The position numbers and the translations under genes were made by a program. This document shows positions 17,444-31,160 of a stretch of DNA of 45,639 nt, piece after piece. The DNA lies in contig CAJWLU010000027.1 of NCBI GenBank assembly GCA_913043225.1, positions 1 through 45,639 on the forward strand, given 5' to 3'. Below the pieces are notes generated by a model. It was not told the origin of the DNA. It searched no databases and saw nothing but the letters and a program-made list of their open reading frames with translations. The first letter of the stretch is position 1, and each line of letters starts with the position of its first letter. Source of the DNA: an uncultured Acidobacteriota bacterium (GTDB taxonomy: Bacteria > Acidobacteriota > Vicinamibacteria > Vicinamibacterales > UBA8438).

Positions 17444-17821
17444 TTAGTCCTCACAATCGCCCGGGAGGCGACCCAGCGCCGTGTGCGCCGCCAGCACCAT
17501 AGCCCCGATGTTTCCGGCACTGAAAAAGCCGCCGGCCTCTCCGTCAGCCACCAGTTCAGCGGCCACCCTCACCGCAACCGCCGGCTTGCGGCGGAGCACG
17601 GCGGTCGGCGGCTCGTCCATCGCCACCGCCTCGGGAGCCGCAACGACGCCGACATCGAGCGAGCCAGCATCTGGATGCCGCTCCAGCTCGGTGATCAGCA
17701 ACCCCGGCGCCCCTACCAGCGCAACCCCGACCTCGGCGTACCGCACCGCTTCGAGCGCCCCGTCGACGACGTTTCGCGGAGCAAAATCACCGCCGGTCGT
17801 GTCAACCGCGACGCGGGGTCT
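17444..17821 (-). pseudogene. plsX: Truncated phosphate acyltransferase PlsX (N-terminal ~123 codons only)
   Basis: RVAVDTTGGDFAP (canonical DAMGGD.AP), MDEPP..LRRK, SAGNIGA (canonical SAGNTGA) and LGRLPG, then a stop after four unrelated codons. There is no in-frame start codon directly before RVAVD. It sits in the canonical rpmF-plsX slot. Confidence 0.88.
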
Positions 17822-17916
17822 ACTAGAAGACGCCCGCCAGGTGGAACCGAGGCGAGCTGCGAATGGAGCGGTGGATGGGGCAACCACCTACGCTGCGGCT
17901 CAGAAATGCGGAGGGA

Positions 17917-22465: not shown

Positions 22466-22474
22466 AGTATATCA
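22466..22474 (-). promoter_or_regulatory. Extended -10 element (TGaTATACT) upstream of the tonB-like gene
   Basis: Minus-strand TGATATACT, 22 nt before the ATG at 22443. Confidence 0.45.
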
Positions 22475-23236
22475 GTCGACTGTTGGTGGCTCCGCGACCT
22501 TCCGAGCCACATACAGATAGACGACACCGAAGCTCAGGCGTTCAACCCGAATCTCGGTGAAGCCGGACTGTTCGAGCAAAGCGGCGAGCTGGTCGGGAGT
22601 GAGAAAGGCACTAACCGACGCAGGAAGATAGGCGTAGGCGTCGGTGTGCCTGGAAAGCCATCGTCCGATCTGAGGCAACACCCACCGGAAGTACCACAAG
22701 TAGAACGCGCGCAGACCCGGCATCCGTGGCTCGCCAAACTCGAGGATCGCCAGACGACCGCCCGGCTTCAGCACCCGTGACATCTCGGCAATCGCGGCGG
22801 CCGTGTCCTGCACGTTGCGAATACCGAACCCGACGGTGACGGCGTCTATGACCTCGGTTGCGCACGGAAGACGAGCGGCATCACCCCGGGCCAGACGGAT
22901 CTGACCGTCGAGGCCTGCCGCGCGGAGCTTACCCAGCCCCAAGAGCAGCATCTCGGCCGCAAAGTCAACGCCGAGCACCCGCACCCGAGGCACCCCGGCG
23001 GCGGTGGCCGCAATCGCGAGATCGGCCGTGCCGGTGCAGACATCGAGCACCTGGTCGCCGTCGATCAGCTCGAGCGCGTCGACCGCCACCCGGCGCCAGC
23101 GACGGTCGAGCCCGGCGCTCAGCAGATGATTCAGCTGGTCATACCGATGGGCAATCGCGTCGAACATCCCCGCGATCCGTCGCGGGTCCTTGTCGAGCGA
23201 CGGCGCGCGTCCGCCCGCCGGGGCCGGCATCGTCAT
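22472..23236 (-). CDS. menG: Demethylmenaquinone methyltransferase (UbiE/MenG)
   Basis: MFDAIAHRYDQLNHLLSAG.DRRWR, LDVCTGTAD, FGIRNV, RVLKPGG, AYAYLPAS. ATG at 23236 forms an ATGA overlap with ubiX. Confidence 0.94.
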   Translation of the reverse strand: MTMPAPAGGRAPSLDKDPRRIAGMFDAIAHRYDQLNHLLSAGLDRRWRRVAVDALELIDGDQVLDVCTGTADLAIAATAAGVPRVRVLGVDFAAEMLLLGLGKLRAAGLDGQIRLARGDAARLPCATEVIDAVTVGFGIRNVQDTAAAIAEMSRVLKPGGRLAILEFGEPRMPGLRAFYLWYFRWVLPQIGRWLSRHTDAYAYLPASVSAFLTPDQLAALLEQSGFTEIRVERLSFGVVYLYVARKVAEPPTVD

Positions 23237-23847
23237 CCTGTCCATGGAGGATAAAGCTCGTGCGAAAACCCTAGCGCCGACAGCACCTTGCCCGCCATGA
23301 AGTCCGCCAAGTCGTCCAACGTTCGCGGCTCCTGGTAGAACGCCGGCATCGCCGGCATCATGACGGCCCCGGCCTCGGCCAACGCCACCATATTCCGCAG
23401 CTGCGGCAGGCTCATCGGCGTTTCGCGGGCCACGACAACCAGCGGCCGGCGCTCTTTCAACATCACGTCAGCGGCCCGCTCGACCAGCGTTCGTGACAGA
23501 CCATTGGCGATCGCGGCGAGCGTCTTCATCGAACAGGGAACGATGGCCATGCCCTGGCAGGCGTGGCTGCCGCTGGCGATCGACGCGCCGACGTCGCGGT
23601 TGTTCAGCACCGTCATCGAGCCGGCGCCGACCCCCTCGCCATAGCGATCCACAAGATAGTCGGTCAGCCGGTCAAGACTGGCCTCCTCGCCAAGCTCGTC
23701 ACGCAGCAACCTCCGGCCGAAATCGGACACCACCAGTTCGACTTGGCACCCCGCCTCGAGCAGCGCCGCCACAGTGCGCACGGCATACAGCGCGCCGCTG
23801 GCACCGGTGATTCCTACGGCGAAACTGGGGTTCGTGTTAATTGACAT
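23233..23847 (-). CDS. ubiX: Flavin prenyltransferase UbiX (MqnM-type)
   Basis: GITGASG, IASGS, PCSMKTL, RAADVMLKERR, RETP, PAFY. Confidence 0.94.
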   Translation of the reverse strand: MSINTNPSFAVGITGASGALYAVRTVAALLEAGCQVELVVSDFGRRLLRDELGEEASLDRLTDYLVDRYGEGVGAGSMTVLNNRDVGASIASGSHACQGMAIVPCSMKTLAAIANGLSRTLVERAADVMLKERRPLVVVARETPMSLPQLRNMVALAEAGAVMMPAMPAFYQEPRTLDDLADFMAGKVLSALGFSHELYPPWTG

Positions 23848-24691
23848 AAAGTGCCGCCGCAGTCGCAACAAGATAGAAGATCCCGACATAGCCGTTAAGG
23901 TCGAACGCCTCTTTCACACGGGATAGATCATGGGATCGGACCAGAGTCTGCTCGTAGGCAAGCAGCGCCGCGACGCCGGCCACGCCGAGGAGATACCAGG
24001 GCCCGAGCGGCACCACCAGCGCCACCGCCGCCAGCGCCATAACCGTCAGCAGATGCAAGCCGCGTGCAATCGCCAGAGAGGTCTCCACACCGAACCTGGC
24101 TGGTATCGAGCGCAGCCCATGGGCACGATCGAAGTCTAGATCCTGGCAGGCGTAGAAGATGTCGAACCCGGCGACCCAGGCGCCGGTCGCCACGGCGAGA
24201 ATCCAGGGTGCCCAGCTCGTGCCCCCACCAGCTCCCAACCAGCCGCCAACCGGCGCCACAGCGAGCGCCAGTCCTAGGAACAGCTGGGTGTAGGTCGTAT
24301 AGCGCTTGGCCAGCGAGTACCAGAAGATGATGGCCAAGGCGACGGGCGACAAAACGAAGCAGATCCAGCTCAGCTGGGTCGTTACAAGGATGAACGCGAT
24401 CGACGACGTCGCCACGAGGGTGACAGCGCTAGCCCGCGACAGGACGCCTCGCGGCAGCTCTCGGTTCGCCGTCCGCGGATTCAGCGCGTCGAACCGGCTG
24501 TCCACCAGCCGGTTGAAGCCCATGGCGGCCGTGCGGGCGGTCACCATGGCGGCAACGATCCACAGTACCCGGCCCAATGTGACCGGCGTCTCCTGAGCCG
24601 CCAACAACGCCCCTACCAACGCGAACGGCAGCGCGAACAGCGAATGGCTGAAGCGAACGAATGACGCGTAGGTGCGGAGAGTCGTGAACAT
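23837..24691 (-). CDS. mqnP: UbiA-family polyprenyltransferase of the futalosine pathway (MqnP)
   Basis: FSHSLFALPFA, ARTAAMGFNRLVD..FDALNPRT..RELP, GFDIFYACQD; multiple TM segments. Confidence 0.88.
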   Translation of the reverse strand: MFTTLRTYASFVRFSHSLFALPFALVGALLAAQETPVTLGRVLWIVAAMVTARTAAMGFNRLVDSRFDALNPRTANRELPRGVLSRASAVTLVATSSIAFILVTTQLSWICFVLSPVALAIIFWYSLAKRYTTYTQLFLGLALAVAPVGGWLGAGGGTSWAPWILAVATGAWVAGFDIFYACQDLDFDRAHGLRSIPARFGVETSLAIARGLHLLTVMALAAVALVVPLGPWYLLGVAGVAALLAYEQTLVRSHDLSRVKEAFDLNGYVGIFYLVATAAALYVN

Positions 24692-24708: not shown

Positions 24709-25923
24709 TCAGCCGGCGGCGCCATCGTCTGGGTCGAGCCAAGTCACCTGGTCCGGACCAACGCCGCCCACCAAGTATTCTTCCACATCGAGAGATTCGT
24801 CAGGAACCGGAACCGCGATCAGCGAGGCATGCGAGCCAGGCGCGATCTCGCCCAGCTCTCCGCCGAATCCGAGGGCCCGGGCACCGTGCACCGTGGCGGC
24901 GGCAAGCAGGGCACGCGCAGGCACCTCAGACGACAGTTCCCTGAGCCTCGCCAGCTCGGCGAACAGGTTCAGGTCCGGGGCGCTCGCCAGACTGTCGGTT
25001 CCCACGGCCAGCCGCACGCCCGAGCGCACAAACCGTTCGAGCGGCGGGTCGCCCACCCCCGTCCAGCGATTGCTCCGGGGACAGGTCACGAGCGTCGCCC
25101 CCGCCTCCCCGAGACGCGCGAGCTCGTCATCGGAGAGCTGGACGCCATGGGCCACGACCAGTTCGCTACTCAGCCAGCCCACCTGCTCCAGATAGGCCAC
25201 CGGACCGATGCCGGGCACAGCCCACGCCGGGTCCCAGCGGCCGATCCGCTCCAGCAGATCCCGCCACGGTCCATGCCCGCCCGCCAGAAACTCGATCTCA
25301 TCTGGCGACTCGCCCAGATGGATTGCCCGTGGCCCCCCGAGAGACTGGCTCACCTGACCGAGGGCACGCAACGCTCTGGCGCCTACCGAGTAGGGAGCAT
25401 GCGCCGCCAGCCCAACCCGGACGTCCGCATTAGCGTCAGCCCCGCGAATCTCGTCGAGGGCTGCCGTCACCACCTCGTCGGCCAGCGTGTCTGGAAAACC
25501 CACGACCTCGCGGAACACCCGCGCGCGGAGTGGAGACGTTCGTAGCTCGGGGACCGCGGCCAGTGTGTTGCCGATGTCGCCGACCAAACCCGTGCCAGAC
25601 GACCGAACCGCTTCAATAGCCGATCTGATCGCCGCCGGGTCGGAAGATGACGCGGAGTCGCGTGCCCGCATGAGCGACACCACCCACTCGGGCATCGAGG
25701 GCGCGGGCGGCACACGACCGGACAACGCCGAAAGCTCCAGGTGCGTGTGGGCGTTAACGAGCGACGGCAGGATCACCGAGCGCCCCAGGTCGTGGGTCGT
25801 CGCAGAACCGGTCATCGGCGAGGCGCCGACCGCGACCACTCGCCCAGCCTGCACCGTGACCACACCGCGCAGGACGGGCGGCGCCGTGATCGGCAGAATC
25901 CAGTCGGCCTGATAGTGGATCAC
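24709..25923 (-). CDS. Metal-dependent amidohydrolase (COG0402 type), probable aminofutalosine/5'-deoxyadenosine deaminase
   Basis: NAHTHLEL, HAPYS, HLGES..E, HGV, CPRSN, GTDS; overlaps the mqnC stop. Confidence 0.8.
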   Translation of the reverse strand: MIHYQADWILPITAPPVLRGVVTVQAGRVVAVGASPMTGSATTHDLGRSVILPSLVNAHTHLELSALSGRVPPAPSMPEWVVSLMRARDSASSSDPAAIRSAIEAVRSSGTGLVGDIGNTLAAVPELRTSPLRARVFREVVGFPDTLADEVVTAALDEIRGADANADVRVGLAAHAPYSVGARALRALGQVSQSLGGPRAIHLGESPDEIEFLAGGHGPWRDLLERIGRWDPAWAVPGIGPVAYLEQVGWLSSELVVAHGVQLSDDELARLGEAGATLVTCPRSNRWTGVGDPPLERFVRSGVRLAVGTDSLASAPDLNLFAELARLRELSSEVPARALLAAATVHGARALGFGGELGEIAPGSHASLIAVPVPDESLDVEEYLVGGVGPDQVTWLDPDDGAAG

Positions 25924-27131
25924 GGTCCCACGTCGGTGCGTTGCTGCTTTCCGACGCGACTGCGGGCCGGATACTTCGCTAACTCGGCGGGGACCGAATC
26001 GTGGCCGGCCTGGCGCGCTACGTCGAGCTCGGTTCGACGGGGGATCGTCCGTTCGCGGAACAGCGGCCCACCGAGATCGTCGTAGACCATGTTCCGCCGT
26101 CGCGGACGAAACCCGGCATCTTCGATATTGCGGACAATCTCGACCTCGTCCATACAGTATTCGGCGCCGGCGGCCCGCACAACGTTCTCCTCGATCATGA
26201 CGCTGCCCATGTCGTTGGCGCCATAGGCCAGGCTCAACTGTCCCACCTTGCCGCCCTGGGTGACCCAGGAGGCCTGAAGATTGTCGAAGTTGTCGAGCAC
26301 GATCCTGCTCAGGGCCAGTGTCCGCAGGTAGTCGATGCCGGTCGCCTCGGCGCCCCTTAACTCGGTGTTGTGCGGCTGATAGCTCCAGGTGATGAAGGCC
26401 GTAAACCCGCCGGTATCATCCTGGAGTGCCCGTAAGCGACACAGGTGCTCGATCCGTTCTTCCGGCTCCTCGACGCTCCCGTACATCATTGTGGCCGTCG
26501 ACCGCAGCCCTGCTTCGTGCACCGCCCGCATCACACCCAGCCACTCGTCTGCGGTGGCCTTGCTGTCGCAGTTGAGCAGCCGGCGCACCCGGTCGACGAG
26601 AATCTCCGCTCCCCCACCAGGCACGCTGTCGAGTCCAGCCGCGACGAGACGCCCCACCACCTCAGTCACCGACAACTGCGACAACCGGGAGATATGGAGA
26701 ATCTCCGGCGGTGAGAGCGCATGCAGCTTGAAGTCGGAGTAGCGCTCCTTGATGCCCCGGAAGAGATCCTCGTACCACGCGATCGGTAGATCGGGATTAT
26801 GCCCGCCCTGCAGCAGCAGCTGCACACCCCCCACAGACAGCGTCTCGTCGATCTTCTCGAATAGCTCTTCGAACCCGAGGACGTACCCCTCACCGGAACC
26901 GACCGGTCGATAGAACGCGCAGAAATTACAGCGCGCGACACAGACGTTCGTGTAGTTAACGTTGCGATCGATGATGTAAGTGACTACCCGCTCAGGGTGC
27001 TTGCGTGCCCGGATGGTGTCAGCCAGGCGCCCCAGCAGGCTGGTAGGCGCGTCGTGATACAGCTCAAGCGCGTCACCCCGGCTCACTCTCGCCCCGGAGA
27101 GCACCTGATCGGCGATCGACTCGACACTCAT
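25920..27131 (-). CDS. mqnC: Cyclic dehypoxanthinyl futalosine synthase (radical SAM)
   Basis: DRNVNYTNVCVARCNFCAF, LLQGGHNP, PGGGAEIL, QASWVTQG, GSVMIEENVV. Confidence 0.93.
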   Translation of the reverse strand: MSVESIADQVLSGARVSRGDALELYHDAPTSLLGRLADTIRARKHPERVVTYIIDRNVNYTNVCVARCNFCAFYRPVGSGEGYVLGFEELFEKIDETLSVGGVQLLLQGGHNPDLPIAWYEDLFRGIKERYSDFKLHALSPPEILHISRLSQLSVTEVVGRLVAAGLDSVPGGGAEILVDRVRRLLNCDSKATADEWLGVMRAVHEAGLRSTATMMYGSVEEPEERIEHLCRLRALQDDTGGFTAFITWSYQPHNTELRGAEATGIDYLRTLALSRIVLDNFDNLQASWVTQGGKVGQLSLAYGANDMGSVMIEENVVRAAGAEYCMDEVEIVRNIEDAGFRPRRRNMVYDDLGGPLFRERTIPRRTELDVARQAGHDSVPAELAKYPARSRVGKQQRTDVGP

Positions 27132-27170: not shown

Positions 27171-27968
27171 TTAGGGCTCGAAGAAACGAATCCTGGGAGG
27201 CGTTTGGACCAGCCGCAGATCGTAGGCGTAGTCATAGAACTTCCGCAAACCCGCGAGGGCGCGCTCGTCGAGCGAGAAGGAGACGTTCTCCCGCAGATAG
27301 GTGCGCCCGACCTCCTGAGCCTCCTCGTCCTCGGGCCCGTGCGCCGCCACGATCTCGTTCACTGTGGCCACGCCAGCATCCCGGGCCTGCTGGAGCGCGG
27401 CGACGTGCTCAGGGCCGATCGCGCCGTTCCGGCCGGCCCAGACCGCCCACACGAAGGGCAGCGACGTCATGGCCGTCCACTCGTCTCCGAGGTCGACCTT
27501 GTCCAGCCCCTGGCTCTCGTAGTCAAGGTGCAGCGCCTGGTCGCCGATCACCAGCGCCGCGTCACAACGCTTAAGCATGACATCAAGCTCCGGACGGAGC
27601 TTCACCAGTTTCGGGTCGATGTCCCACCACTCGGTACACAGCACTCGCACCAGCGCGGCCGCTGTCCGCGAGCTGCTGTCGACTGCGATCGACCGAAGCG
27701 AGGTCGCCGGGCGGGTGGTGAACAAGGCTACCGACGCCACGTCACCCTCCGACGCAACTGCCAAATCCGGCACGATGCTGTAGTCGGAGAACTGCAAATA
27801 CTCGATAGAGGGGATCAGCCCGAGGTCCACCGACTTCTCGTGGAGCTGGGCCGCGCAGCGCGCGGGGACGTCGTACTGCAGCTCGAAGAGATCGGAGCGA
27901 GCACCCAGCCCGTGGACGAGCGGCCGAGCGTTCAGATACTCGACAGCGCTGACTCGAATCGCACTCAT
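27171..27968 (-). CDS. mqnA: Chorismate dehydratase MqnA
   Basis: VEYLNARPL, G.VASV, SSRTA, LVIGDQAL, DLGDEW..MTSLPFVWAVW. ATG at 27968. Confidence 0.92.
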   Translation of the reverse strand: MSAIRVSAVEYLNARPLVHGLGARSDLFELQYDVPARCAAQLHEKSVDLGLIPSIEYLQFSDYSIVPDLAVASEGDVASVALFTTRPATSLRSIAVDSSSRTAAALVRVLCTEWWDIDPKLVKLRPELDVMLKRCDAALVIGDQALHLDYESQGLDKVDLGDEWTAMTSLPFVWAVWAGRNGAIGPEHVAALQQARDAGVATVNEIVAAHGPEDEEAQEVGRTYLRENVSFSLDERALAGLRKFYDYAYDLRLVQTPPRIRFFEP

Positions 27969-28861
27969 GACGCTTCGAAGCGGCCATTCCGACGGACCGC
28001 CGTGTATCCCGCGGCGACGATGTTCCGCCGCACCTCCTCGCGCGGCGCCCGGCGCCATCCCTGGTCCCCGGACTCGGCCGGCACGGCATCCAGGTCGTCG
28101 GCGCCGAAGGTCAGGGCCACCTGCGCTAGCTTCGGACCATGCCGCGACCAGTCGACTTGGATCGAGTCGATATTGTCAACCAGAAGTCGAGCCAGCGCAA
28201 CCTGACGAAGGTCGGCGTATCCGGTAGACGGCTGCATCGGATCATCGTCGGAGAGTGGCGCCAGCGAGCGACAAACGGCAGCCGCCGTTCCCCAGTCCGC
28301 TACTCGGATGAAAGCCGTCACCGCCGCGTCTACGGCGGCCTCCCGCGCCCAGATCCGGTTGACACGCAGGCCGCTCGCGCCAACGGCCTCGAGTAACGCC
28401 ATGGCTTTCCCCTGGTCGTCGAGCGAGAGTAAATCATCAACCGCCACCTCGGCCAGAGCGGCGAGACCGGCGTCGGCCGCGGCCCCGAGCAGTTCACTGA
28501 GGGCATCGATCTGCCCGTCGCATGCCCGATAGGCTGCCATCAAATCGCCACCGGTCACCGGAGTGTCGGACGAGGACGCTGCGGCGGCCGCGACCGTCTG
28601 GATCAGCGTCTCCGGTTGCGGGATCTCGCCGACGAGACGAATCTCTCCTGCCTCTGGAACCTCACCGACCGCTTCACCCCACGCCACCCGGGCCACCTGC
28701 ACGTAGGTTGCTCGATCGCCGTGGCGGCGACGCCGGGCCTCATCGGCCAACATACCCAGCCCGACGAAATCTGATGCGGTGGCCAAACGCCGATGGTCGT
28801 GGCGATCGAACGCCACACCGTCGGCCAGCTTCCTCCCGACGGCGCTCAGCTCATCACTCAT
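27965..28861 (-). CDS. MqnE/MqnC/CofH-like radical-SAM-fold protein lacking the CxxxCxxC motif
   Basis: N-terminal LGMLADEARRRRHGDRATYV and C-terminal TGYADLRQVALARLLVDNIDSIQVDW...KLAQVALTFGADD...IVAAGY..VRRNGRF align with the CofH/MqnE family. Only two Cys, far apart. Confidence 0.82.
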   Translation of the reverse strand: MSDELSAVGRKLADGVAFDRHDHRRLATASDFVGLGMLADEARRRRHGDRATYVQVARVAWGEAVGEVPEAGEIRLVGEIPQPETLIQTVAAAAASSSDTPVTGGDLMAAYRACDGQIDALSELLGAAADAGLAALAEVAVDDLLSLDDQGKAMALLEAVGASGLRVNRIWAREAAVDAAVTAFIRVADWGTAAAVCRSLAPLSDDDPMQPSTGYADLRQVALARLLVDNIDSIQVDWSRHGPKLAQVALTFGADDLDAVPAESGDQGWRRAPREEVRRNIVAAGYTAVRRNGRFEAS

Positions 28862-29840
28862 GCCCGTCCTCATCAGAGGCGCCCAGTTCGGTGCGTGCCC
28901 GCTCCGCGGCCATCGCTTCGGCGACCCTCTGTGCCAGTTCGAGAGCCCGGCGCCCGGCTCTACCGTCGACCAAACTTGGGGTCCCGGCTCGCACCGCGGC
29001 GACGAAATCCGTCAACTCTAGGACCAACGGTTCCCCGGCTGCGATCTCAAGCCTACCCCCCTCGATGGCCGGCCCCTCGTCACCTCCACGCCTCACCCGC
29101 CATCCCTCGACCTGCTGCTCAGCGCAGTCAATGGAGATATAGGCATCCTGCTGAAAAAACCGCAGCTTCCTGACCCGGTCTCGACTGATACGACTCGCCG
29201 TGAGATTCGCGATGCACCCGGTCTCGAAGCAGAGACGAGCGTTGGCGATGTCAACCCGATCGCTGAGAACCGGCACGCCGACCGCCTCGACCGAGTCCAG
29301 GGGACTGTCGACGGCGGTTGCGATGATGTCGAGATCGTGAATCATTAGATCGAAGACGACGTCGATGTCGAGACTGCGGGACGGGAACGCGCCGATCCGA
29401 TGCACCTCGATGAACCGGGGCGACCTGACCAGTGGCAACGCCGCGGCCACCGCCGGATTGAAACGCTCAGTGTGGCCGACTGCCAGGATCGCACCACTCT
29501 CAGCCGCCGCAGTTAACATCGCATCGGCTTCCTTGAGCGAACGAGCTATCGGTTTCTCCACCAGCACCGAGACGCCACGGGCAAGCAACGGCACCGCAAC
29601 CACGCTATGCGCTTTGGTGGGCACGGCGAGGGTCACCGCGTCGACCTGCCCTTCAAGCGCCTCAATGCTATCGAACGCCGTCGTGCCAAACTCGGCCGCC
29701 ACTGCGGCGGCACGGTCGCCGTCGACATCCACCACCGCTTCGAGCCGAACCTGATCGAGCTCAGACAAAACGCGGGCGTGATGTCGGCCGAAATGCCCGA
29801 CACCCACCACTGCCATCCGAGGGGCACGGTTCGCGGTCAT
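28854..29840 (-). CDS. Gfo/Idh/MocA oxidoreductase, GnnA-like (UDP-GlcNAc 3-dehydrogenase family)
   Basis: VGVGHFG, LVEKPI, VGHTERFNP, DVVFDLMIHDLD, ASRIS; directly after lpxA. Confidence 0.85.
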   Translation of the reverse strand: MTANRAPRMAVVGVGHFGRHHARVLSELDQVRLEAVVDVDGDRAAAVAAEFGTTAFDSIEALEGQVDAVTLAVPTKAHSVVAVPLLARGVSVLVEKPIARSLKEADAMLTAAAESGAILAVGHTERFNPAVAAALPLVRSPRFIEVHRIGAFPSRSLDIDVVFDLMIHDLDIIATAVDSPLDSVEAVGVPVLSDRVDIANARLCFETGCIANLTASRISRDRVRKLRFFQQDAYISIDCAEQQVEGWRVRRGGDEGPAIEGGRLEIAAGEPLVLELTDFVAAVRAGTPSLVDGRAGRRALELAQRVAEAMAAERARTELGASDEDGHE

Positions 29841-29903
29841 CGATGTAAATCCCCGCAGGCGTCAACCCGCACATGAGGCGGGCGCGTCGGGAACACGATG
29901 GTC

Positions 29904-31160
29904 TTACTCGTCGGAGACCATCGCCGCCTCCAACCGCTTCGGAGGCCGGCGCAGGTTAACCCCGCGCCGCGAGGTCCGGATGAACTCGACCAAATAGTCG
30001 ACCTCCGGACAGCGGAGCGTCTCGTCCTGCTCAATCTGTCGAATCGCTTGCGTGGTATTGAGCTTCGAGCGAAGCAGGTAACGGAACGCTCGCTTGAGAT
30101 CGGCGATCGTCTCTGGCGGCATGCCCTGGCGCTTGAGCCCGATAGTGTTCAGGCCGTATATGCGTGCACGATTTCCGACACTGCGCGCATACGGCATCGC
30201 ATCGAGGGTCACCACCGAGTAACCGCCAATGAACGCCTGGCGTCCCACCCGGCAGAACTGGTGGACCCCGGAGAACGCCCCGATGTTGGCCTGGTCCTCG
30301 ACGGCCACGTGCCCTCCAAGCGTGGCGCCGGGACCGAAGATCGTCTTGTTGCCCACGGTGCAGTCGTGTGCCACATGGACATAAGCCATGAAGAGGTTAT
30401 CGTCGCCGATGCGGGTTACCCCTCCGCCAACCTGGGTGCCACGATTGACGGTGACGAACTCGCGGAAAACGTTTCGACGCCCGATCTCGAGGGTCGTGCG
30501 TTCACCCTTGAACTTCTGGTCTTGCGGAATCATGCCGATCGAAGCGCATGGGAACACGCGCGTCTCGTCGCCGATCTCCGTCCAGCCGTCGATGACGGCC
30601 GACGCGCCGATGCTGCACTCGCGTCCGACCTTCACGTGCGGGCCGATGACGGCATTCGGCCCGATCACCGTCCCGGCGCCGATCGCGGCACCCGGAGCCA
30701 CGTGCGCCGTCCGGTCGATCCGCGGCTCATCGAGCAAAACCCCCAAGAGCAGCTCCGCCTCGGCCACCACCTGATCCTCGACGCGCGCCACCGCCGTGAC
30801 CGCGGCCAATTGACGCCGGCGGCGGCGCACGGCCACGTCCAGTTCCAACCGGTCGCCCGGCACGACCTGCCGGCGGAACCGCGCGTGGCGGACCCCGCGC
30901 AGCACGGTGCGACGACCGGACGGTTCGCCGTCCTCATCGAGCAGCAGCAGGCTGGCAGCCTGCGCCATCGCCTCAATGGTCAGTACACCCGGCATAAGCG
31001 GGGTGCCGGGGAAATGTCCCTGGAAGAACTCCTCGTTCACGGTGACGTTCTTGACCGCGAGCAACCGCTCACCGGGAGTGCATTCGAGAATACCGTCGAC
31101 CAACGGCGCTGGATACCGGTAGTAATGACGATCGAGGCGTTCGGTGGCGTCGAGGAGCAC
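29904..31160 (-). CDS. lpxA: FabZ-LpxA fusion: 3-hydroxyacyl-ACP dehydratase domain plus UDP-GlcNAc O-acyltransferase
   Basis: aa ~1-140: RYP..LVD, KNVTVNEEFFQGHFP, PGVLTIEAMAQ, FRRQVVPGD. aa ~145-418: hexapeptide repeats, PQDQKF, REFVTVNRGT, HVAHDC, HQFCRVG, GLN.IGLKR. One continuous ORF. Confidence 0.93.
   Translation of the reverse strand: MLLDATERLDRHYYRYPAPLVDGILECTPGERLLAVKNVTVNEEFFQGHFPGTPLMPGVLTIEAMAQAASLLLLDEDGEPSGRRTVLRGVRHARFRRQVVPGDRLELDVAVRRRRRQLAAVTAVARVEDQVVAEAELLLGVLLDEPRIDRTAHVAPGAAIGAGTVIGPNAVIGPHVKVGRECSIGASAVIDGWTEIGDETRVFPCASIGMIPQDQKFKGERTTLEIGRRNVFREFVTVNRGTQVGGGVTRIGDDNLFMAYVHVAHDCTVGNKTIFGPGATLGGHVAVEDQANIGAFSGVHQFCRVGRQAFIGGYSVVTLDAMPYARSVGNRARIYGLNTIGLKRQGMPPETIADLKRAFRYLLRSKLNTTQAIRQIEQDETLRCPEVDYLVEFIRTSRRGVNLRRPPKRLEAAMVSDE

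Follow-up and report, generated by a model that had tools for sequence, protein, structure and literature searches.

The window, by which we refer to the whole stretch of 45,639 nucleotides that was analysed, carries on its minus strand an operon of the futalosine pathway in which a gene for a 298-residue protein, hereafter X, precedes mqnA, mqnC and further genes of menaquinone biosynthesis (Table 1). The futalosine route to vitamin K2 (menaquinone) has two radical SAM steps, one catalyzed by MqnE and the other by MqnC. X belongs to the Vicinamibacterales, an order whose members live in soil and in the sea.

The frame of X runs from an ATG at 28861 to a TGA at 27965 without internal stops, in agreement with the sequence-only reading of this DNA, which had described it as intact. 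An alternative in-frame ATG at 28873 would give 302 residues, and the methionine at 28861 is the start in 110 of 121 aligned homologues. The coordinates also bear out the tight packing proposed in that reading: X shares 8 nt with the upstream Gfo/Idh/MocA oxidoreductase gene, which ends at 28854, and its stop codon shares the ATGA at 27965-27968 with the start of mqnA. The locus has neither CxxxCxxC nor CxxC in its three minus-strand frames, and a sequencing frameshift hiding the motif is thus ruled out.

Table 1. Features of X and of the surrounding operon in the window
Feature	Position	Strand	Basis and remarks
Gfo/Idh/MocA oxidoreductase, upstream, 8-nt overlap with X	28854..29840	-	Pfam
X, cluster-less MqnE-derived (beta/alpha)8 protein, 298 aa	27965..28861	-	ORF scan, Pfam, homologues, fold prediction
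X residues 56-68, site of the CxxxCxxC loop in MqnE and MqnC	28658..28696	-	Profile alignment; ~32 residues deleted vs MqnE
X residues 200-260, PL..TGY.D.RQVALARL..QVDW..GPKLAQVAL..GADD.D, most conserved block	28082..28264	-	Alignment; undamaged in MqnE-less genus
X G268-x-R270-R271 motif, in place of the MqnE EExIxHxAG loop	28049..28060	-	Complete in 235/237; 0/4 in MqnE-less genus
mqnA, chorismate dehydratase	27171..27968	-	PF02621; ATGA-coupled to X
mqnC, radical SAM cyclase, CxxxCxxC intact	25920..27131	-	TIGR03699 477.9 bits, above cut-off
MqnC order-specific C-terminal tail, 53 aa here	25923..26081	-	Order vs outgroup MqnC comparison
Amidohydrolase; best match aminofutalosine deaminase family, under its cut-off	24709..25923	-	Profile match
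mqnP-like UbiA prenyltransferase	23837..24691	-	Pfam, NCBIfam
ubiX flavin prenyltransferase	23233..23889	-	Pfam, NCBIfam
menG/ubiE methyltransferase	22472..23245	-	Pfam, NCBIfam

Among its genomic neighbours, X is linked most tightly to mqnA. This gene lies directly after X in 29 of 29 and 40 of 40 loci and, in the largest set, in 79 of 80 (the three sets overlap), with an overlap of 1 or 4 nt in 36 of the 40 loci, as judged with start codons placed by script; mqnA and mqnC overlap in only 16 of the same number. The sole locus of 80 in which X stands apart from both mqnA and mqnC, L277, belongs to an assembly of 2.5 Mb in which neither MqnE nor MqnC was found. The Gfo/Idh/MocA gene is an inconstant neighbour, its place being taken by a ubiD-like gene in 15 of 40 loci.

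Further along the window, a fabZ-lpxA fusion of 418 aa occupies 29840-31160 and is separated from the oxidoreductase by 64 nt, compared with about 870 nt in the relative G010, where the gap presumably holds lpxI, given the usual gene order. Of the four other genes that the sequence-only reading considered visibly decayed, comparison with two relatives upholds the claim for plsX alone (17444-17887); this gene abuts fabD and is cut to about one third of its length, with approximately 124 residues aligning to a protein of roughly 350. As direct selection data exist for X, that remark is dispensable here.

Loss of the radical machinery and retention of the fold

In the alignment to the neighbouring MqnC, TYVQVARVAWGEAVG of X stands at the position of TYIIDRNVNYTNVCVARCNFC, and LAALAEVA is found where MqnC reads LDSVPGGGAEI, so that both CxxxCxxC and PGGGAEI are lost, as had been claimed from the window. 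The sites of GLHP, PGGG and TMLYGHxE, SAM-binding motifs located after strands 2, 4 and 5 of MqnE, are likewise changed or deleted in X. Of the 108 positions that are 90% conserved in MqnE, X keeps 39, while 51 are changed and 18 deleted. No match of X to Radical_SAM (PF04055) was obtained at E 1, versus 63 bits for the neighbouring MqnC, while CofH_C (PF19288) matched residues 216-295 with 30.4 bits against a gathering cut-off of 27. X scores 67.1 bits on the MqnE model TIGR03700 and 60.4 bits on the MqnC model TIGR03699, below the respective cut-offs of 434.55 (equivalog) and 428.1, and only 37 bits on the CofH model. No match to TIGR04347 (pseudo-SAM/SPASM) appeared among NCBIfam models at E 0.01, and the SPASM domain is absent.

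In profile comparisons X is closer to MqnE (282) than to MqnC (239), and the MqnE profile outscores the MqnC profile for 118 of 123 X-family sequences. The barrel was confidently predicted (pLDDT 84), and the full MqnE-type barrel and the N-terminal helices are retained in the predicted fold. On the evidence of alignment and fold prediction, X is a protein from which the catalytic residues of its parent are gone while the fold persists, and aminofutalosine synthase activity is predicted to be absent from it, given the missing motif. Database records label X either 'aminodeoxyfutalosine synthase' or 'hypothetical'; the former label is wrong.

Relatives share the loss. The best 120 homologues, 257-327 aa in length and 44-94% identical to X, come from Vicinamibacterales or Acidobacteria where the records are named. 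CxxxCxxC was found in none of these 120, none of 79 full-length representatives (50% clustering) and none of 48 genomic copies, and close relatives therefore do not keep the motif at this locus. Two motif-bearing long proteins among 268 sequences were rejected as members of the X family, being MqnE-MqnC fusions.

The family evolves under purifying selection, with a dN/dS of 0.13-0.36 rather than near 1 (Nei-Gojobori, 19 distinct pairs above 62% identity among the 48 copies, after removal of two duplicate rows). Values for mqnA in the same pairs are 0.02-0.33, X being higher than mqnA in every pair compared. Identity to the query across the order is 31-59% for most pairs, and 53 positions are conserved at 90% or more in 237 sequences. 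Invariant polar residues lie on the predicted strands (R55, E73, R75, Q235, D237, D256 and D258); conservation in 123 diverse sequences reaches 98% for E73 and R75, 92% for D237, 93% for D256 and 99% for D258. The arginines R55, R75, R270 and R271 reach 93-100% conservation, R75 standing where MqnE has an invariant histidine. No cysteine of X is conserved, the best column reaching 44% of the 237 sequences and 14% of the 79 divergent representatives.

Distribution of X and its co-loss with the futalosine pathway

Screening 151 genomes of the order gave a strong match to X (E < 1e-40) in 133, a match at paralogue level only in two and none in 16; the frames are open and full-length in nearly all of the 133 genomes, which represent 18 families. 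The view of X as a conserved, cluster-less relative of MqnE that is under selection and linked to the futalosine pathway, first taken from the window alone, is supported. In a phylum-wide sample of 251 genomes (including the unpublished G172), all 23 listed genomes of the order matched X with E values of at most 1.2e-55, and the remaining 228 gave 82 bits at most. Within the genomes sampled, X was found only in this order.

The 16 genomes devoid of X coincide with the 16 of 150 in which both MqnE and MqnC are missing, and menD, which marks the classical pathway, is present in 13 of these 16 as opposed to none of 33 X-bearing genomes. X has therefore been lost together with the pathway, although the X-less genomes are related to one another, making up one whole family plus two genera of a second one, so that they may represent three losses and not sixteen. 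In the two pathway-positive genomes without X, mqnC lies no more than about 740 nt from the start of a contig. Three genomes that are 97-100% complete (G049, G066 and G120) showed neither MqnE and MqnC nor menD at the thresholds used.

Canonical MqnE scored above the cut-off in 126 of 150 genomes of the order and in 362 of 401 of a larger sample (including the unpublished G479). The genome of the window has a separate canonical mqnE, whose product reaches 489.6 bits on TIGR03700, on another contig; mqnB, mqnD and a UbiD-like gene are also on other contigs, and with all four present there is no pathway hole in this genome. It also encodes a CofG/CofH fusion resembling FbiC (G000:C9:56291-58588). 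Neither X, mqnA nor mqnC occurs within 1.5 kb of the working mqnE at any of 20 loci of the order, the usual neighbour being nadA (15 of 21 loci). An upstream element, which we suspect to be a cobalamin riboswitch, and a gene resembling TonB receptors are shared by 16 of 21 of these mqnE loci (L001, L036-L055). Outside the order, four MqnE sequences (L078, L079, L085 and L086) have a widened C-x5-C-x2-C in place of C-x3-C-x2-C.

One genus, g12, retains X without detectable MqnE. In its four genomes (G004, G379, G380 and G381; 82-100% complete; loci L163 and L169-L176) X lies 37-59 nt ahead of mqnC, and the operon no longer contains the native mqnA. A divergent gene of the MqnA family (30-32% identical) is found elsewhere, flanked by a TetR/efflux unit and a two-component system, and the gene set comprises mqnA-like, mqnC, mqnD, mqnP, ubiX and menG. 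MqnE was not detected, its model being matched by MqnC and X alone (E 0.001, four genomes); in G004 no mqnE precedes nadA, and none of 29 radical SAM genes is a convincing stand-in. A radical SAM protein with C-x10-C-x2-C (NF045502; L310:997-2292, plus strand) has a patchy distribution over 77 genomes, being present in 22 of them, some of the menD type.

X of g12 keeps an open frame and a dN/dS of 0.28-0.46 at dS 0.56-0.88 (six pairs), compared with 0.14-0.17 for mqnC of the same genus. The 53 conserved positions have fared unequally in it: the miss rate is 0.017 in residues 200-260 (0.029 in 237 other sequences) and 0.50 in residues 261-282 (0.03 in the others). G268, R270 and R271 never occur together in this genus (Table 1), the substitutions varying by species, and R75 is missing from two of the four proteins. 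With the 200-260 block kept and the GxRR loop decayed, the genus shows a task of X that is independent of MqnE and the native MqnA, and a loop that is not, being dependent on either the one or the other. The genus counts as one lineage, not as four independent events, and since its dN/dS exceeds the values found elsewhere, slow decay is possible. Twelve scattered single assemblies are also without trace of MqnE; every readable X among them keeps GxRR, mqnA stands beside X in all but one, which is cut by the contig end, and several look like assembly gaps.

Ancestry and proposed role of X

The sister-order genome G205 has the canonical order mqnE-mqnA-mqnC-deaminase-mqnP-menG, and two further outgroup loci read mqnE-mqnA-mqnC. 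By this comparison of gene order X is shown to occupy the ancestral mqnE slot. We propose that the ancestral operon was mqnE-mqnA-mqnC, and that catalysis passed, in the ancestor of the order, to a second mqnE located elsewhere in the genome. The copy in the operon would have lost catalysis and retained a structural job beside MqnC that was already that of MqnE, and MqnC would have acquired a tail. X may now hold MqnC, stabilising or activating it, and draw the upstream step (MqnA/MqnE) into one assembly with MqnC.

We tentatively favour the reading, to which we assign slightly less than an even chance, that X is a non-catalytic subunit with two faces, whose conserved C-terminal block is predicted to dock on MqnC and whose GxRR loop is predicted to engage MqnE or MqnA. 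The idea of a scaffold or heterodimer subunit receives indirect support from the MqnE-less genus, from fusions of MqnE to MqnC and from the MqnC tail; direct support for the channelling suggested in the sequence-only reading did not emerge. Fusions are common: a search with a fusion query at E 1e-150 recovered 213 long proteins, and among 121 examined (P0240, P0261, P0281-P0399) 118 are MqnE-MqnC with both motifs, one is reversed and two are cut at the N-terminus. They come from several phyla, the named ones being Armatimonadota and Desulfobacterota, and in P0321 (1052 aa) an MqnA-family domain lies between the MqnE and MqnC halves. The conserved C-terminal tail, 49-59 aa long, is present on 39 of 39 full-length MqnC of the order and absent from seven outgroup MqnC and 118 fusion halves. 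PDB searches returned no solved structure of MqnC. The block at 200-260 is also where X most resembles MqnE and MqnC, and it may be kept for folding and not for binding; the invariant polar residues on the strands look like a kept pocket, which would suit a ligand-binding or enzymatic role.

As an alternative, the constant, mostly overlapping position before mqnA would fit a protein that carries or senses 3-[(1-carboxyvinyl)oxy]benzoate, the product of MqnA, or chorismate, and in which a putative arginine-rich barrel mouth binds the dicarboxylate, frees it from MqnA and passes it to MqnE, or else regulates MqnA. The conserved arginines, among them R75 at the place of the MqnE histidine, decay in g12, whose operon has lost the native mqnA, and the readable assemblies without trace of MqnE keep GxRR and, with one contig-cut exception, mqnA, as a link to MqnA would have it if any of those losses are real. 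However, X of g12 is still selected beside mqnC after its arginines have decayed, so that carrying cannot be its sole job, and we consider this account unlikely. It is quite unlikely, too, that X serves solely the working MqnE as a silent subunit, a homodimer turned heterodimer, with the g12 copies decaying slowly. The MqnE descent evident from the profile scores, the decay of GxRR where MqnE is missing and the relaxed dN/dS in g12 would all agree with it, but each of the four g12 species, in which MqnE was not detected, keeps an intact frame under selection and a 200-260 block free of damage, and X, mqnA and mqnC are absent within 1.5 kb of the working mqnE at the 20 loci.

The conserved glutamate, arginine and aspartates on the strands (E73, R75, D237, D256 and D258) of a confidently predicted barrel might instead belong to a new non-radical enzyme, a hydrolase, lyase or repair activity on an intermediate or by-product of the futalosine pathway. 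The genome of the window already has every step, though, MqnE ancestry accounts for several of these residues, R75 is gone in half of the g12 proteins despite the gene being kept, and X has no conserved cysteine for a metal site, which leaves such an enzyme distinctly improbable. Modest identities between most pairs of the order and a dN/dS consistently above that of mqnA are what a decaying pseudogene, or a spacer kept for translational coupling only, might display; the full-length frames across 18 families, the 53 highly conserved positions and the low dN/dS make this extremely improbable, and the pseudogene reading is refuted by the selection data.

A broader form of the subunit reading, which we hold to be rather doubtful, would make the futalosine route a physical assembly in which MqnE and MqnC normally pair, a pairing that would account for their repeated fusion. 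The dead MqnE copy would be an adaptor that clamps MqnC through one face and the MqnC tail, with the arginine loop on another face capturing the MqnA product or MqnE, and in g12 the pair of X and MqnC would work without a recognisable MqnE, aminofutalosine then coming from salvage or from unrecognised chemistry.

X differs from each of the known systems that it resembles. Compared with MqnE (TIGR03700; PDB 6XI9/6XIG from Pedobacter heparinus), it has lost CxxxCxxC, GLHP, PGGG, TMLYGHxE and EExIxHxAG, is about 65 residues shorter and has a new GxRR loop. With MqnC (TIGR03699) it shares a paralogous barrel at 27% identity, a common operon and the residues T52, Q235, K244, Q247 and R279, but it is without the cluster motif and its family mostly scores higher on MqnE. 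The TIGR04347 pseudo-SAM/SPASM proteins, which are not known to carry the cluster motif, provide a radical-SAM-derived precedent, and eukaryotic Dph1/Dph2 exemplify the pattern of an inactive paralogue serving as a subunit; like these, X has been kept after canonical catalysis was lost. Unlike TIGR04347 proteins, it has neither a SPASM domain nor conserved cysteines, and it resides in a quinone operon of primary metabolism. In the ESM Atlas, Myxococcota clusters of 197-230 aa resemble X, and there are X-like clusters of which only about 30% of the members carry Radical_SAM; these are possibly parallel cluster-less families. CofG and CofH of F420 synthesis, fused in FbiC, also form two related radical SAM barrels that are separate or fused, as MqnE and MqnC are. 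Both FbiC domains are catalytic and are reported to function independently (PMC8498797), so that fusion is no proof of contact between MqnE and MqnC.

No account of X was found in the literature on the futalosine pathway, including that of Acidobacteria and Vicinamibacterales, on MqnE/MqnC complexes or fusions and on radical SAM pseudoenzymes, as far as the accessible text of these sources goes (including PMC13459092, which treats the MqnE reaction, PMC4746308, PMC8498797 and PMC3914697). In these sources, MqnE and MqnC are treated as stand-alone enzymes. X is real and conserved, and it is apparently an undescribed pseudoenzyme in a core quinone pathway.

The seemingly complete pathway of g12 without MqnE poses a separate question. 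MqnE is pursued as a target for narrow-spectrum antibiotics. The maintenance of a dead MqnE throughout an order, together with the widespread MqnE-MqnC fusions, suggests that a second role of MqnE, a structural one, has been overlooked, and X separates this role from catalysis. If MqnC needs a partner resembling MqnE, this would matter for the reconstitution of MqnC, and X as a linking subunit would, if true, constitute an undescribed part of the menaquinone pathway.
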